This document shows positions 3,719-51,281 of a stretch of 64,000 nt of DNA, in pieces. Source of the stretch: Oscillatoriales cyanobacterium. GTDB taxonomy: Bacteria; Cyanobacteriota; Cyanobacteriia; Cyanobacteriales; Laspinemataceae. Location of the stretch: assembly GCA_011390955.1 (NCBI GenBank), contig JAABRM010000001.1, forward strand, positions 46,694 through 110,693, read 5' to 3'. The notes under the pieces are model-generated. The model searched no databases and was not told the DNA's origin. It worked only from the letters and a program-made list of their open reading frames with translations. The stretch's first letter is position 1. Every line of letters begins with the position of its first letter. Made by a program: the position numbers and the translations under genes.

Positions 3719-4362
3719 GTCATTTGAGCGATTTTGCTGTAGTTATTTGGGTGACTGGACTTGCTTCAAGTGATTTCAGTCCAGTCAGTCTAAACTCTGC
3801 ATTAAAACAAAATTAAAACCAAATTGCCACAAAAGCGATCGCGTTTATTTGAACATTAATTGAGCCGTAATTGAGCATGATTTGACCCGTAATTGAGTAT
3901 TATTTGAGTATTAATACCATTGACAAAAAGTTATGCAATAGTAGGGGCGCAATGCTTGCGCCCAAATAAACCTGGGAATTACAGCAGTAATTTTTAAAAT
4001 TCGTATAATTAAATGGCTTGAGAGAGAGTCATTGTTTTTGTTGATGAATTATCATCAGATAAAAAAATGAATGAAAAAAAAGTTAATCATTTTGCGAGTT
4101 AATTGAAAGTCAATTGAGTCAGGGGGCTGGTTTTGGGATAAATTTCCCCGGAATTTGCGGTTTGGGGTCTTTGGCAACGGGCGACAAAGATGATATGATA
4201 TATCTTGCCGATCGCTCCCAGATCGGGTCTGATGATTAGTTGTAAAATTAAAACAACTACATCACCATACCCCTAAAAATAACCCGATGATTCACTGAAA
4301 TCAAGGTGGGAAATTAGGGGCCTTGTTCTGTAGGTCAGATATCGGTTACGACAACAACTTCT

Positions 4363-6774
4363 ATGTTGTTGGAGGTGAAATTGAATCCCAAAGAAGACTC
4401 TGTACTAAATTCTACTGCTGCATCTGAACGATCGCGATCTGACCATGATGGGATCCTTAACCAGTCATGGCCAGAGGTATTTTATGCGTATTTCCCGGCG
4501 ATCGCCTTGACCCTTGATGCCGCAGGATTTGTCCGTTGGGCGAATCAATGGGCAGAACAATCCCTGGGTTATCTTCAAGGGGAATTAATTGGCAAATCTT
4601 TTGCGGAGATGCTGGAAGCATCAGAATGGGATTTACTGGTAGAAGAAATCAAGATTGATTCGGATCCAGTCGGTATAGTGAAAACTTGGGATACTTGTCT
4701 GAAAAAGAAAGATGGCAGTTTTTGTTGTCTGAGACTGACCCTGCGCTCCCTCGCCGCTAATGCAGAATTATTCCCCGATCGCCCCTCATCCCAATTAGTG
4801 AATTCTCCACTGATTATTTTGGTAGTGGGACAGACAATTACCCCACAGAAACATGAGAGTTTATGGGCAGAAAAATTACAGCGATCGCTGGCATTGTTGC
4901 AAGGGTTTATCGCATCCAGTCCCAATGGGATTATGCTCGAAGATAGTGATGGAGAAATTATCGCCTGCAACGAGCGATTTCGCCAACTCTGGGGACTGTC
5001 CAGGGGAGAGACAAATCGGTCATCCCAGTCTGAACTTGAGGCGATCGCCCAGCAATTAAAAAATCCCGCAGCTTTTCAAGCGCAACTTCAGCAATTTTCG
5101 GCAAAATCTGATGCCTTCGGCGATCGATTGCTGGAATTAAAAGATGGTCGCATTTTTGAATTTTCCACCCAACCGCAACGCTGGCAAAACCAAATTGTAG
5201 GCCGAATTTGGGTTTTCCAAGATATTACGGAGCGATCGCAGACTCAAGCCACCCTCAAATTCACCCAATCATCCATCGCTCGCAGTGCGGAAGCCGCCTT
5301 TTGGTTATCCGCTGATGGTCGTTTCTGCTATGTCAACGATGCCGCTTGCCGTTCCTTGGGATATCCTCGGGAACAGTTACTAGAAATGACGATTTTTGAC
5401 ATTAACCCAGATTTGTCAGAAACCGACTGGCAACAACAATGGCAAGATTTAAAACAACGGGGTTCTTTTCATTTAAAATCTCATCAACTGTCAGGAAAAG
5501 GGACAACCACTCCCTTAGAAGTCACCGTAAATTATGTCGAGTTTAAAGGAGAAGCTTATGGCTGTTCTTTTATTCATCAGCTTTCCCAAGCGAAAGAAAC
5601 AGATTTAATCCGGCGCCAAGAACAAGAACGACAGAAACTCCTGGGACAAATTGCCACAAAAATTCGCCAATCCCTGAATGCTCAAGAAATTTTGCAAACT
5701 ACGGTGGATGAAGTTCGGCAATTGTTAAATACTGACCGGGTATTGGTTTTCCGCTTTAATCCCGATTGGACTGGGCAAGTGATCGTAGAATCCGTGGGAG
5801 CGGATTCTTTGGCTATTTTAAACGAAAAAATTCACGACCCATGCTTTGAAGCCCGCTATATTCTCCCGTATCAAGAAGGAAGAGTTAAAGCAACTGAAGA
5901 TATCTATACGGCGAATCTAACTCAATGTCATCTAGATTTATTATCGCGATTTCACGTTAGAGCAAATTTAGTGGTGCCGATTCTCTTTAATCAAGAAATT
6001 AAACATCAAGAAATTCAACAGCTATCTGATGAGGAAACGGAAAGTTTACCCGATGAAGGATTAGGGGAAGATATACCAAAAGTAGAGCATTCTAAGTTAT
6101 GGGGTCTGTTGGTTGCCCATCAATGTCGTAGTCCTCGGCAGTGGCAATTGTGGGAAATGAATTTACTGCAACAATTGGGAGTTCATGTGGCGATCGCGAT
6201 TCAACAATCCACCTTATTTGAACAACTCCAAGCCACGAACAAAGAGTTAGAACGTCTTGCCAGTTATGACGGTCTGACCCAAGTGGCTAATCGTCGTTTA
6301 TTTGATAATTTCTTACAGAAAGAATGGCGGCGAATGCTCCGAGAAGAATCTTGGTTATCCTTGATTCTGTGTGATATTGATTACTTTAAACCTTACAATG
6401 ACACCTACGGCCATTTAGCTGGGGATAGTTGTTTGCAACAAGTGGCAGCAGCGATTAGTTCTGTGGTCAAACGTCCCGCTGATTTAGTCGCCCGTTATGG
6501 GGGGGAAGAGTTTGCGATTATTCTACCGAATACCCACTTATCTGGTGCGGTAAAAGTTGGGGAAAAAATTTGCGCCCAAATCAATCAGTTGAAAATTCCT
6601 CACCAGGGATCTTTAGTGTCTCATCAAATTACCCTCAGTTTAGGAATTGCCAGTATTTTTCCTCATCCCGATGAATCACCCAAAATTTTGATTAATGCCG
6701 CAGATCGGGCATTATATCGAGCCAAAGAACAAGGACGCGATCGCATCTGCACCAACAAAGTTTCTTGCTTTTAA
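4363..6774 (+). CDS. sensory diguanylate cyclase, PAS-PAS-PAS-GAF-GGDEF
   Basis: C-terminal GGDEF domain with intact '[12 protein letters not shown]' active-site motif and '[14 protein letters not shown]' linker. Upstream GAF-like segment ('[19 protein letters not shown]'...'[17 protein letters not shown]') and several PAS-like blocks. Confidence 0.85.
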
Positions 6775-8330: not shown

Positions 8331-8410
8331 AGAGTGAATAGTGATACCTATTTTCACTTTTCACTTGTACGGGCGAATGCGAGAACGCCCCTACGAATGC
8401 ATCACTTTCC

Positions 8411-8503
8411 CCAACCAACAACCAACAGCAAACAACAACTAACAACAAACAACAACCAACAAACAACAACCAACAACAAACAACCAACAAACAACAAACA
8501 ACA
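8411..8503. repeat. STRR-like CAACAAA/CCAACAA array (right arm)
   Basis: 'ccaaccaacaaccaacagcaaacaacaactaacaacaaacaacaacc...'. Confidence 0.8.
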
Positions 8504-19606: not shown

Positions 19607-19633
19607 GTAGGGGCGCAATGCTTGCGCCCCTAC
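19607..19633. repeat. palindrome GTAGGGGCGCAATGCTTGCGCCCCTAC (GTAGGG...CCCTAC family)
   Basis: Perfect 27-bp palindrome. A near-copy with a degenerate right end is at 3941-3963. Confidence 0.75.
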
Positions 19634-47971: not shown

Positions 47972-48010
47972 AAAACCCCGGTTTTTTTTAGAAAAGCCGG
48001 GGTTATTTTA
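47972..48010 (+). terminator. putative rho-independent terminator of the pot operon
   Basis: 'aaccccgg-ttttttttagaaaag-ccggggtt' hairpin followed by 'atttta'. Confidence 0.5.
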
Positions 48011-48044
48011 CTGCGCTTTTCTGTTGATTAAACCACAAATTTTT

Positions 48045-48222
48045 GTAGGGGCGAAGCATTCCGGCAGATAGCTTATTGCTGAAACGATTAATTTGACTAC
48101 CGGAATGCTTCGCCCTTACTGCGGTCATGCTTGACCCTTTGTAAGGGAAGGGCGAAGCATGACCGCAGATGATTTATTGCTGAAACTATTAATTTGACTG
48201 CGGTCATGCTTCGCCCCTACAG
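48045..48222. repeat. composite nested palindromic element (GTAGGGGCG...CGCCCCTAC outer stem; inner hairpins with compensatory stem variants and a shared loop)
   Basis: Hairpin 1 'GCGAAGCATTCCGG-[cagatagcttattgctgaaacgattaatttgacta]-CCGGAATGCTTCGC'. Hairpin 3 'GGCGAAGCATGACCGC-[agatgatttattgctgaaactattaatttgac]-TGCGGTCATGCTTCGCC'. Alternative hairpin 2 'GCGGTCATGCTT-N20-AAGCATGACCGC' shares a strand with hairpin 3. Confidence 0.7.
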
Positions 48223-48230
48223 TTGTCTAT

Positions 48231-49619
48231 CTACTGATTTTTCACATACTGTTTAAATAAGCCTTGCACGATAAATAGGGACGCACCATTATTATCGCTG
48301 ATTTTTTCGATTAAACCCCGTTTCCGCAAAGACTGGATCGCGGTCAAAAAGTCAGCATCCGGTAGTAGGGGCGAATGGCCATTCGCCCCTACGGGTTTCT
48401 GGAAAATATCGGCGGCTTCTTGGTTGACTAACCACCCCATGACTATTTTTTCAGGTTCAGATAACCGTTGATAATATTCTTGTAATCTGGGTTCTAAGTC
48501 TCCGAGAAATAACGTAGGATAAGATAAGAAGCGATCGACGCTGCGGTTAAATAAGTCGTCAATGGTAGCCGCAACAATATTTAACCAGGACGGGTTGCCG
48601 CTATAAAGTTGGATCAGTTCCCCCCATTTATGCCGATCCTTTAAGTCTTTATTGGTCAGTATTTCCGTTGCCGCTTCTCCCAACCCACCCAGTTGTAAGC
48701 TACGGCAATGGCGGTTTTCTCCTTCTAAGGTGGCAATTTCTGTGGGCTTTTCCCAACTGAGGATGAGGAAGCAACTTTTGTGAGGCGATCGCGCCATTTC
48801 TTTGAGAAATTTCCCATAACTTTCGGCTTCTGGCAGATAAGTGCCTGCGAATTTTTCAGGGGCAAACAGTTCTTGGAAGTCATCGAGAATAATCAGACAA
48901 CGATTTAAACGCAAATAGTCGATAAGGGATGATGATTTGGTTTCCTGATTTTGGGAAAAAAACTCAATTAAATTGGTTTGGAAAGATTTTAGGGTGAGAG
49001 TTTCGCTACAGTTGCGCCAAAGGATATAGTCAAAGTTATCTTTAGTTTGTTCTACCAGTTCTCTAGCGAGGGTGGTTTTGCCTATTCCCGGCAAGCCAGA
49101 CATATTTACAAGGCGGATTTTTTCGGCCAAAATCCACTTTTTTAGGGTGGTTATTTCTGCAAGGCGGTTATTATGATGCTCCCATTCCGGGGCTTCGGTT
49201 AAATTGTGGCGTTGTTCTGGTTGTTGGCTAGGGGAATTTGTGGAGGAATTGGCAGAGGGCGATCGGGTTTTTCCTGTGTCGTAATACCTACTATCTCCAC
49301 AAAAGTTTATTTCACCCTGATTAAAATTACTTTGGACAAAGTTTTGAATCTTAGAATTAGAGATATAAAAACGTTCCATTGTAGCGCGGAAGTTTTTCTT
49401 ATCTATTTTTTCGTCTAACTCATCGGATATTAATTTCCATAAACTAGCCGCTACTCGCTTAACATTTGGTTCGCTACAGTGATAATCCTCGGCGATATCT
49501 CTGTATTTTTGACTATCCCAAGCCCCTGCTAAAATTGCCTGTTGCAGATTATTTAAGTGCGCTCCTGTTTTGGCAAATACTAATTTATCAGCCCATGCGA
49601 GGACTTCTTTAACATCCAT
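48231..49619 (-). CDS. STAND NTPase (NB-ARC type) with N-terminal helical domain and no C-terminal repeats
   Basis: Walker A 'MSGLPGIGKTTLAR'. Walker B 'CLIILDDFQELF'. It contains an in-frame perfect palindrome 'gtaggggcgaatggccattcgcccctac' (48365-48392) encoding 'VGANGHSPLL'. Confidence 0.75.
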   Translation of the reverse strand: MDVKEVLAWADKLVFAKTGAHLNNLQQAILAGAWDSQKYRDIAEDYHCSEPNVKRVAASLWKLISDELDEKIDKKNFRATMERFYISNSKIQNFVQSNFNQGEINFCGDSRYYDTGKTRSPSANSSTNSPSQQPEQRHNLTEAPEWEHHNNRLAEITTLKKWILAEKIRLVNMSGLPGIGKTTLARELVEQTKDNFDYILWRNCSETLTLKSFQTNLIEFFSQNQETKSSSLIDYLRLNRCLIILDDFQELFAPEKFAGTYLPEAESYGKFLKEMARSPHKSCFLILSWEKPTEIATLEGENRHCRSLQLGGLGEAATEILTNKDLKDRHKWGELIQLYSGNPSWLNIVAATIDDLFNRSVDRFLSYPTLFLGDLEPRLQEYYQRLSEPEKIVMGWLVNQEAADIFQKPVGANGHSPLLPDADFLTAIQSLRKRGLIEKISDNNGASLFIVQGLFKQYVKNQ

Positions 49620-50033
49620 CAGCGATACATATCTTAGTAAGTTTTAGGCAATTTTACTACCTTTTGCACCCTTTTGCTACCTGTTGCAACTAAACTTTAC
49701 TTTTTTATACCAACGGGGGGCGAAAGAGGATGCTTCCGAAGAGGCGATCGAAGCATCTCCTAGTTATTTTTACGGATTTTTGCTACCTATTGCAACTTTT
49801 TGCTACTTAAATATACTTTTTGCAACCAATCATGGTTTAGGAAGGTCGGTTAAAGTCTATACCAGAATAGACTTTTTTAGACTTTATTAATCAGCAGAAA
49901 TATTTAATAATAAGGTATAAATTTAGCTGAGATTTTATAGGAATTTTCATAGATAAAATTCATCCGAATTATATGAAAAGCCCTATCACCTTAGAAAAAT
50001 ATAATTATTAATGCGGCAGGCCGTATTATCACT

Positions 50034-51281
50034 ATGGAACAGTGGATTAACTTTGATCGGTCGCTCAATCAACGCTTGAACCGAGAGGCTTTAGATCAAC
50101 AACAAAGCAAAGCTAAAAACTTTTCTCTTGAAGGCCATGCTTTAGTTCGAGGTGTAGCCGGGTCTGGCAAGTCACTGGTCTTGAGAAATCGAGTTGAAAA
50201 ACTCATTGATGATGGCTATGATAATATTTTAGTGCTGTGCTATAACCGCTTTATGAACGGTTGGATTGACTCAAAACTAAGAGAAAAAAGGTTAAACTTA
50301 GATATAACCTGTAAAACCTTCCACAGTTGGGCATATCGAATTGGATATGATTATAAATGGGACGATCATCCGGATTCCCGACAAAAAATTATCAACTTAG
50401 TCGAAGAAAACTCAAAACATCGCTATCAAGCAATTTTAATTGACGAAGCGCAGGACTTTTACGACGAATGGTTCCAAGCAATGCTACCAGCAGTCAATCC
50501 AGACACAAATTCTATTTTTTTTGTTTATGATAACACTCAATCAGTTTATGGGCAACCTCATCGGCTTAAAGACAGTTGGACATGGAAATCTCTTGGGTTT
50601 ACAATTCCTGGTGGTCGTTCTCAAATATTTGAGCTTAACTATCGAAACACCCCGGAAATCTTGGAATTAGCTTGGCAATTTATTTTACCTTATTTGTCTA
50701 ATGCTAAGATGAAAATTTCCAAGCGGGCTGAGGCGGGAGGAAACATTGGTCACATAGTCGAACCTGTAAAAAAAACTGCCCGCAGTTCTTCGATTAAACC
50801 AATACTGGTTAAAGGTGATATATCTGCAAGTATTATCGCTAATCAAATTAAGTTGGCATTAAATAGCCATCCAGAATCTTCAGTTGGCGTTTTGCTACAT
50901 CCCAATGAGGATAAAAGTTTTAAGAAAAAAATTAGTGATTGTTTGTGGGATCTAAATATCGATCATCATGCACCAATGCGTTCAATAGAACGAAATAGTA
51001 ACGTTGTAGATAGACCATTTGTCATCATTGATTCCTGGAATGCTCTTAAAGGAGTTGAATTTGATGCAGTGATCATTGCCGGGATAGATAAGGTAAAAGA
51101 TTTACCAGACACCGATGAAGATTTCAAAGAAAAAGCTGGGTTATATACAGCAATGACACGGGCAAGAGATCATCTGATTATGTTATATGATAATGAAACT
51201 CCAGTAGTCAAGCAGATTGAAAAAATTCTAGCATCCCCAGATGTTTTATCTTTCGATATAGATATGAGGCAATCAGCTTAA
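50034..51281 (+). CDS. compact SF1 (UvrD/Rep-like) helicase-core protein, 415 aa
   Basis: Motif I 'GVAGSGKS'. Motif II 'ILIDEAQDF'. Motif VI 'LYTAMTRARDHL'. All core motifs are packed in ~400 aa with no obvious 1B/2B accessory insertions. Confidence 0.7.
   Translation: MEQWINFDRSLNQRLNREALDQQQSKAKNFSLEGHALVRGVAGSGKSLVLRNRVEKLIDDGYDNILVLCYNRFMNGWIDSKLREKRLNLDITCKTFHSWAYRIGYDYKWDDHPDSRQKIINLVEENSKHRYQAILIDEAQDFYDEWFQAMLPAVNPDTNSIFFVYDNTQSVYGQPHRLKDSWTWKSLGFTIPGGRSQIFELNYRNTPEILELAWQFILPYLSNAKMKISKRAEAGGNIGHIVEPVKKTARSSSIKPILVKGDISASIIANQIKLALNSHPESSVGVLLHPNEDKSFKKKISDCLWDLNIDHHAPMRSIERNSNVVDRPFVIIDSWNALKGVEFDAVIIAGIDKVKDLPDTDEDFKEKAGLYTAMTRARDHLIMLYDNETPVVKQIEKILASPDVLSFDIDMRQSA

Follow-up and report, generated by a model that had tools for sequence, protein, structure and literature searches.

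A probable RayT-associated REP cluster of two tandem double-foot hairpins and a leftover arm between convergent genes of an Oscillatoriales cyanobacterium

Two long hairpins and an extra arm between convergent genes

The window, by which the whole 64,000-nt stretch of DNA analysed here is meant, has a G+C content of 43%, contains 89 copies of HIP1 (GCGATCGC) per 64 kb and is cyanobacterial in character. At 48045-48220 of the window, two 75-nt hairpins with near-identical loops were found together with an extra arm that is able to pair with unit 2 (Table 1). The element starts ~40 nt past the terminator-like hairpin of an ABC-permease (pot-like) gene, and 10 nt separate the end of unit 2 from the stop codon of a convergent NB-ARC/NACHT (STAND) ORF, in agreement with the preliminary description, which had placed the element between the pot terminator and the 3' end of the STAND gene. 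If transcription of the STAND gene reads on, the cluster would fall in its 3' untranslated region. A terminator scan returned the hairpin of the permease gene as the sole match, with no T-run after either REP unit on either strand, and the REP units were rejected as intrinsic terminators, being G+C-rich hairpins without a following U-run. A search of the 64-kb window with an HMM based on a published RAYT/TIRYT alignment (Di Nocera et al.) detected no RayT gene. A UvrD-like helicase ORF (50034-51281, + strand) follows the STAND NTPase ORF (- strand), and the span 48231-51281 could be a defence-type gene neighbourhood.

Table 1. Positions of the element, its parts, the flanking genes and further short REPs in the window.
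Feature	Position	Strand	Remarks
Terminator-like hairpin and T tail of ABC-permease (pot-like) gene	47974..48011	+	hairpin 47974-48004; gene end 47953
REP unit 1, double-foot long REP	48045..48119	.	from sequence, inverted-repeat search and folding
Unit 1 foot	48045-48048		GTAG
Unit 1 stem	48049-48067 / 48097-48115		constant part GGGCGAAGCAT, inner part TCCGG
Unit 1 loop	48068-48096		
Unit 1 far foot	48116-48119		degenerate, TTAC
Orphan degenerate copy of unit-2-type right arm	48119..48139	.	CTGCGGTCATGCTTGACCCTT; sits between the units
Unit 2 inner foot	48141..48149	.	degenerate, GTAAGGGAA; read from sequence
REP unit 2	48150..48220	.	core 48150-48216, foot reaching 48220
Unit 2 stem	48150-48168 / 48198-48216		constant part GGGCGAAGCAT, inner part GACCGC
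Unit 2 loop	48169-48197		
Unit 2 foot	48217-48220		CTAC (GTAG on the - strand)
Convergent NB-ARC/NACHT (STAND) ORF	48231..49619	-	stop codon 48231-48233
Short double-foot REP of the same superfamily	48365..48392	.	GTAGGGGCGAATGG/CCATTCGCCCCTAC; in frame within the STAND ORF
Short double-foot REP	19607..19633	.	GTAGGGGCGCAATGCTTGCGCCCCTAC
Short degenerate double-foot REP	8367..8394	.	GTACGGGCGAATGCGAGAACGCCCCTAC

Unit 1 has the layout GTAG-GGGCGAAGCAT-TCCGGCAG / loop / CTACCGGA-ATGCTTCGCCC-TTAC, and its 23-nt arms are 91% complementary and separated by 29 nt; unit 2 has the layout GGGCGAAGCAT-GACCGCAG / loop / CTGCGGTC-ATGCTTCGCCC-CTAC, with 19-nt arms of 100% complementarity. Together they form a 78-nt direct repeat with 81% identity at a spacing of 101 nt, and have in common the loop sequence TTATTGCTGAAACNATTAATTTGAC, which occurs twice in the window with 0 occurrences expected. 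Both stems are 19 bp long and GGG/CCC immediately follows the foot in both units. The outer feet of the element are GTAG and CTAC, and the inner feet, TTAC and GTAA, are allowed variants; the whole element is closed by pairing of GTAGGGG (from 48045) with CCCCTAC (48214-48220). Comparison of the inner stems of the two units revealed three fully compensated pairs (T-A>G-C, C-G>A-T and G-C>C-G) and one C.A mismatch that is also repaired. Furthermore, 48119-48139 can pair with 48148-48168 in a third hairpin (21 nt, 90% complementary) that re-uses the left arm of unit 2, with a folding energy of -35.9 kcal/mol vs. -40.0 kcal/mol for the unit 2 hairpin. The predicted minimum-energy fold of the whole element contains hairpins 1 and 2 and not the alternative hairpin, and the whole-element folding energy compared with shuffles gave z scores of -9.3 (+ strand) and -11.1 (- strand). 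The two units of ~75 nt with a shared loop, the complementary stem substitutions, the third hairpin sharing a strand of unit 2 and the outer closure, all put forward in the preliminary description, were thus recovered by the analysis.

Shorter relatives were also present in the window. The foot-plus-stem motif GTAGGGGCGAA was found 12 times with at most one mismatch vs. 0.6 expected, and some of these matches are short perfect palindromes, located at 19607-19633, 48365-48392 and 8367-8394, the last of which is also called degenerate. The palindrome within the NB-ARC/NACHT ORF (GTAGGGGCGAATGGCCATTCGCCCCTAC) is perfect over 28 nt and encodes the peptide VGANGHSPL; its foot reads GGTAGGGG in the strain contig L120 vs. 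GGTAGTAGGGG in the window, a 3-nt difference. The short REP GTAGGGGCGCAATGCTTGCGCCC occurs twice in the window, with both feet at 19607-19633 and with one foot at 3941-3963. In addition, an array of 13 copies of the heptamer CAACCAA (8412-8503), resembling an STRR tandem repeat, lies 17 nt past the degenerate REP at 8367-8394.

Dispersed copies of the arms and their link to RayT genes

The arms GTAGGGGCGAAGCAT and ATGCTTCGCCCCTAC define the dispersed repeat to which the element belongs. Species-representative genomes, one per species, were scanned with the pattern GGGCGAAGCAT-N30-60-ATGCTTCGCCC, and at least 117 loci were found vs. ~2 expected by chance (own calculation). The element is therefore a repeat, and the earlier statement that set it apart from a neutral repeat was wrong. 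The loci are distributed over Oscillatoriales, Microcystis, Nostocales, Chloroflexota, Brocadia, Armatimonadota, Calditrichota, Latescibacterota, Acidimicrobiia and others, and some genomes have several loci, e.g., Microcoleus sp. herbarium12 and Brocadia DTUAMX2. This collection of homologous copies, as envisaged in the preliminary description, allowed the stems to be compared across the family. Among the matches listed, 130 distinct copies have a whole length of 64-75 nt, and GTAG is present as the 5' foot in 68 and CTAC as the 3' foot in 79 of these 130. In the matches listed, the arms are constant across copies, and the inner stem adds ~4-7 further pairs that are variable yet complementary. 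Inner-stem positions 1-5 were paired in 98, 93, 92, 89 and 73% of the copies, respectively, vs. 72, 48, 52, 43 and 47% with shuffled partners; no shuffle attained the observed pairing, and 5-6 pair types occurred at each position. Also among the matches listed, loops are alike only within clades, the neighbouring genes are unrelated and many copies lie within ORFs. A rough survey of the intergenic ones by gene orientation counted 44 tandem, 18 convergent and 6 divergent, and this scarcity at divergent sites agrees with reports on REPs.

Both inner stems of the window element recur in other Oscillatoriales genomes. TCCGG is also found in L003, L017, L029, L041, L045, L046, L057, L093 and L115, and GACCG-type inner stems in L005, L032, L033, L048, L064, L077 and L113; one further locus (L038) is a hybrid that carries TCCGG in its left arm and GCGGTC in its right arm. 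Judged from their inner stems, the TCCGG and GACCGC units are two separate REP subfamilies that recur in other Oscillatoriales. Because both stems recur as subfamilies elsewhere, the covariation between units 1 and 2 is a difference between subfamilies and not local compensatory evolution. The covariation noticed earlier is genuine; it characterises REP subfamilies throughout the family and is not the compensatory evolution of a regulatory RNA.

Within the 64 kb, the exact long variant is found at this locus only; a loop-specific pattern for the exact loop of units 1 and 2 gave 0 matches in genome_contigs and one in metagenome_contigs, a chance AT-rich match, so that no other true copy was obtained. 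A blastn comparison of the element with PLSDB plasmids gave no match, no paper containing the arm sequence was found in literature full text, and a sequence search of the supplements of Di Nocera 2013 found nothing. Clustering of the ORFs around the 117 listed loci yielded no specific recurrent neighbour; the clusters consisted of generic large families (kinases, ABC transporters and AAA/TPR proteins) and of the translated element itself.

Several arrangements of copies at other loci were observed. GACCG-type REPs in Microcoleus and relatives (L032, L033, L048, L064, L065, L077 and L113) have a single GTAG foot and are nested in a larger palindromic element with the outer arms GGGTGCATCTCAC ... 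GAGATGCACCC. At L041, a 507-aa ORF (4810-6333, crude ORF call) runs through a TCCGG-type REP and gives the peptide VGAKHSGTKPRLITNDLSAGMLRPN, which looks like an in-frame intragenic copy. A MAG of Anaerolineaceae (L010, 5222-5911) contains four tandem repeats of ~205 nt, each made of one REP and a second G+C-rich palindromic segment. Doublets in L034, L035, L066 and L067 carry GTAG/CTAC at the outer ends only and have unrelated spacers of 40-80 nt; the loops of the L035 doublet are inverted (REPIN-like), vs. the direct orientation in the window.

RayT was the only recurrent link among the listed loci, and RayT genes themselves carry the element. The RAYT/TIRYT HMM detected RayT-like ORFs at two of the 117 listed loci, in Chloroflexi (L023) and Cyanobacteriota (L086), and each of these ORFs contains the hairpin in frame, directly past the HUH motif; at L023 a second hairpin copy immediately follows the RayT stop codon. 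The L023 protein has 5488 homologues (PF01797), which bear the names "REP element-mobilizing transposase RayT" or "REP-associated tyrosine transposase"; among the NCBIfam models the L023 protein matches NF047646 best, with a score under the equivalog cut-off of that model, and a phmmer search against PDB sequences gave no match. At least 103 of the best 120 of the 5488 homologues have an insert of the arm peptide at the same position, starting with RGEAF or VGAKHS and ending with NASPL or DASPL, and a few homologues are without it; these peptides result when GGGGCGAAGCATTC and GAATGCTTCGCCCCTA are translated in two reading frames. In Egbenema bharatensis (L119), one copy precedes the RayT start codon by ~80 nt and a second is inside the gene; the inner stem is identical in both. 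The RayT of this species (P0066, L119 10001-10558) has the HUH motif NHMRGI, in which the second histidine is changed to arginine, and as judged from this residue it may be inactive.

The RayT proteins can be placed by their motifs. TnpA_REP subclass 2.4, which equals RAYT group 4 of Bertels, is characterized by the motifs NH[IFV]H, WQ and YIxNNP (Quentin et al. 2018, BMC Genomics 19:475, PMC6006769), and NH[IFV]H, WQ and YIxxNP are present in the L023, L086, L119 and P00xx proteins. The REPs of subclass 2.4 are either "canonical long", with three G-C pairs at the stem base, or "double foot", with 5' GT[AG]G and 3' C[TC]AC (PMC6006769). A REP flanking or in frame within a subclass-2.4 tnpA_REP gene was seen in the DNA of the other genomes L023, L086 and L119.

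Allelic variation at the site and the origin of the element

To follow the site among close relatives, contigs encoding a permease 99-100% identical to that of the window were compared 3' of the stop codon. Contig L120 has the window allele plus one more intact 22-nt right arm, ATGCTTCGCCCTTACTGCGGTC, as a tandem duplication between the units (~4990-5035). In L121 (1036-1295, corresponding to 48030-48230 of the window), a different MITE-like element of ~190 nt takes the place of the doublet, and five Logan contigs (L123, L124, L126, L128 and L129) have the same ~190-nt element as far as they reach. This element has inverted ends CAGCGGTTTTTAGATTAATAAACCACA / TGTGGTTTACTCAGTAGAAAACCGCTG, TA on both sides and a central short core REP GTAGGGGTCAACGGCCGTTGACCCCTAC; the window retains only AAACCACA of its left end. 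Relatives with a permease 95% and 90% identical have other neighbours and no REP at the site. The compared strains showed neither a clean empty site nor a target duplication, the other allele being a replacement. Near-identical strains thus have the extra arm twice (L120) or lack it (L121-type allele), and the doublet with its "alternative" arm is unstable on a very short evolutionary scale. Such instability among near-identical strains is in keeping with repeats that are mobile or recombinogenic, and does not suit a conserved riboregulator.

Concerning the assemblies themselves, Logan contigs with the window allele (L001, L122, L125 and L127, four independent short-read assemblies; 4-5 contigs) end at GTAGGGGCGAAGCA, 14 nt into the left arm, and those of the other allele end at AAACCACA. 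An exact-protein look-up of the permease retrieved only a 1-kb contig that ends inside the left arm. The contig ends at GTAGGGGCGAAGCA were not taken as proof of repetitiveness.

On the features of its sequence, the element is very probably a REP cluster of the family associated with RayT/TnpA_REP subclass 2.4, composed of two tandem ~75-nt double-foot long REPs and a leftover arm; by the sequence-level definitions it is a further instance of a repeat kind already described. The comparisons above directly show the family to which the element belongs, the constancy of the arm beside a paired inner stem that varies, the link to RayT genes and the polymorphism among strains; mobilisation of these units by RayT, presumably by a putative cognate RayT in the source genome, is what we infer from E. 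coli TnpA_REP and the IS200/IS605 enzymes. Each copy would fold into a hairpin on single-stranded DNA, e.g., at the replication fork, and by analogy with these enzymes the transposase would read the hairpin and the GTAG foot and then cut and rejoin the strand, so that copies may be spread, duplicated and rearranged. Under such constraint the stem would be kept self-complementary with only the outer ~15 nt constant, and copy lineages would therefore differ by paired changes of the inner stem. RayT action, slippage and recombination between arms could together give rise to tandem units, orphan arms and hybrids; the "alternative hairpin" would be a by-product of arm duplication and not a designed switch, and an influence on neighbouring genes, for instance through a structure at the 3' end of the STAND mRNA, would only be secondary. 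We know of no organism in which movement of REPs by RayT has been shown in vivo. The loops of units 1 and 2 are nearly identical though their stems belong to different subfamilies, which needs local duplication with arm exchange, or loop conversion. In a very unlikely extension of this reading, REP subfamilies would swap arms as modules, by RayT or by template switch, and the competing hairpins in the 3' region of the defence-like STAND gene would tune its expression in a strain-variable manner. The suggestion of a protein-recognised DNA structure in the preliminary description came close, as a hairpin with a GTAG foot is the known type of substrate of the HUH enzyme RayT/TnpA_REP.

The other half of that suggestion, a functional RNA switch in which the transcript would alternate between hairpin 2 and the alternative hairpin and so regulate either the STAND gene or the pot-like operon, was not supported. 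The two hairpins are mutually exclusive, their energies are close (-40.0 vs. -35.9 kcal/mol) and the folding is far beyond that of shuffles; yet the minimum-energy fold consists of hairpins 1 and 2, and the element is located downstream of both flanking genes, past the pot-like terminator and the STAND stop codon. No Rfam family matched the element: the gathering thresholds were passed only by a tRNA in another part of the window, and in E-value mode only sub-threshold matches to miRNA-precursor-like hairpins were obtained. Furthermore, loops and junctions are not conserved and neighbour genes are unrelated across at least 130 copies, the alternative pairing is not conserved, the doublets in L034, L035, L066 and L067 having unrelated spacers, and near-identical strains have none, one or two copies of the alternative arm, or carry another element in place of the whole. 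A switch of this kind is therefore most improbable. A use of the REP cluster by the host as a 3'-end RNA structure, which would protect the STAND mRNA or block read-through between the convergent genes, is compatible with the REP cluster reading and appears possible, if on balance unlikely: the cluster lies between convergent genes, 10 nt past the STAND stop codon and ahead of the sole terminator-like hairpin, the intergenic copies among the matches listed favour the 3' ends of genes (62 tandem or convergent vs. 6 divergent), and E. coli REPs are known to stabilise upstream mRNA (cited in PMC6006769), but strains exist without the cluster or with another element there, and neither hairpin is followed by a T-run on either strand.

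The ~20-nt terminal inverted repeat, the small size and the strain-level presence or absence would also suit a classical IS-derived MITE, whose terminal inverted repeats would be bound by a mobilising DDE transposase. This origin is highly unlikely given that no target-site duplication occurs at the flanks of the units and that, among the 117 listed loci, no DDE transposase or other neighbour recurs near the copies, the only link being to RayT, a Y1/HUH enzyme; the GTAG foot and the GGG stem base are moreover hallmarks of REPs (PMC6006769). The chance that the element is an integron attC site or a fragment of a CRISPR-like array is close to negligible, even though an imperfect palindrome of attC-like length is present and one genome holds a tandem array (L010, four units ~205 nt apart): the ends are GTAGGGG ... 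CCCCTAC without RYYYAAC/GTTRRRY boxes, integrase and cas genes are not recurrent near the copies at the 117 listed loci, and spacing and content fit neither system.

For the REP cluster, these results carry the caution that perfect-looking compensatory stems and competing hairpins can stem from selfish DNA repeats that are constrained as DNA. The site offers a clean example of REP turnover, with three alleles at one site in strains whose flanking genes are 99-100% identical. The arm GTAGGGGCGAAGCAT and a RayT gene containing this arm in frame have spread together over bacterial phyla. In annotation, this may help to mask such repeats and to explain "VGAKHS...NASPL" peptides in predicted proteins.

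Comparison with known repeat systems

The substrate logic proposed here, a GTAG guide with a hairpin on single-stranded DNA, is the same as that of E. coli REP/BIME and TnpA_REP. The E. coli enzyme (structure 4ER8; Messing 2012, Ton-Hoang 2012, cited in PMC6006769) is reportedly an HUH Y1 enzyme with a single-stranded DNA substrate. It belongs, however, to RAYT subclass 2.2 and not 2.4, and E. coli REPs are shorter and bulged. We know of no reported RayT link for the cyanobacterial small dispersed repeats of Elhai 2008 or for the Rickettsia palindromic elements. Both groups, like the element here, are very small palindromic mobile repeats that can occur in frame in genes, but they are untagged or have other sequences. 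The REPINs of Pseudomonas fluorescens (Bertels & Rainey 2011, PMC3116915) are likewise non-autonomous palindromes, supposedly moved by a single-copy RAYT, and form within-genome families and doublets (PMC3116915); a REPIN, however, consists of two short inverted REP hairpins (PMC3116915), whereas here each unit is one long hairpin and the units are direct.

GTAG-tagged REPs have been described in Cyanobacteria, Chloroflexi and the PVC superphylum (Di Nocera et al. 2013, BMC Genomics 14:522, PMC3733652). They form subfamilies with alternative complementary stem residues, occur as dimers, trimers and clusters and prefer positions after genes (PMC3733652); intragenic in-frame copies and REPtrons are also found among them, and the cyanobacterial families are GTAG-12, -15 and -16 (PMC3733652). 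The GTAG tag and the complementary-stem subfamilies are shared with the element studied here and its family, as are the dimers, trimers and clusters, the positions after genes, the intragenic in-frame copies and the REPtrons, a likeness drawn from the published description. The stems of GTAG REPs are mostly 6-13 bp with short loops (PMC3733652), compared with a stem of ~19 bp and a loop of ~30 nt here. The element matches the REPs of subclass 2.4 (PMC6006769), which like it have GT[AG]G/C[TC]AC feet, three basal G-C pairs and a long stem, and the taxa of this subclass, Cyanobacteria and scattered phyla, agree with those of the family (PMC6006769). Unlike in the description of subclass 2.4, two direct units with different inner stems stand side by side in the window together with an orphan arm.
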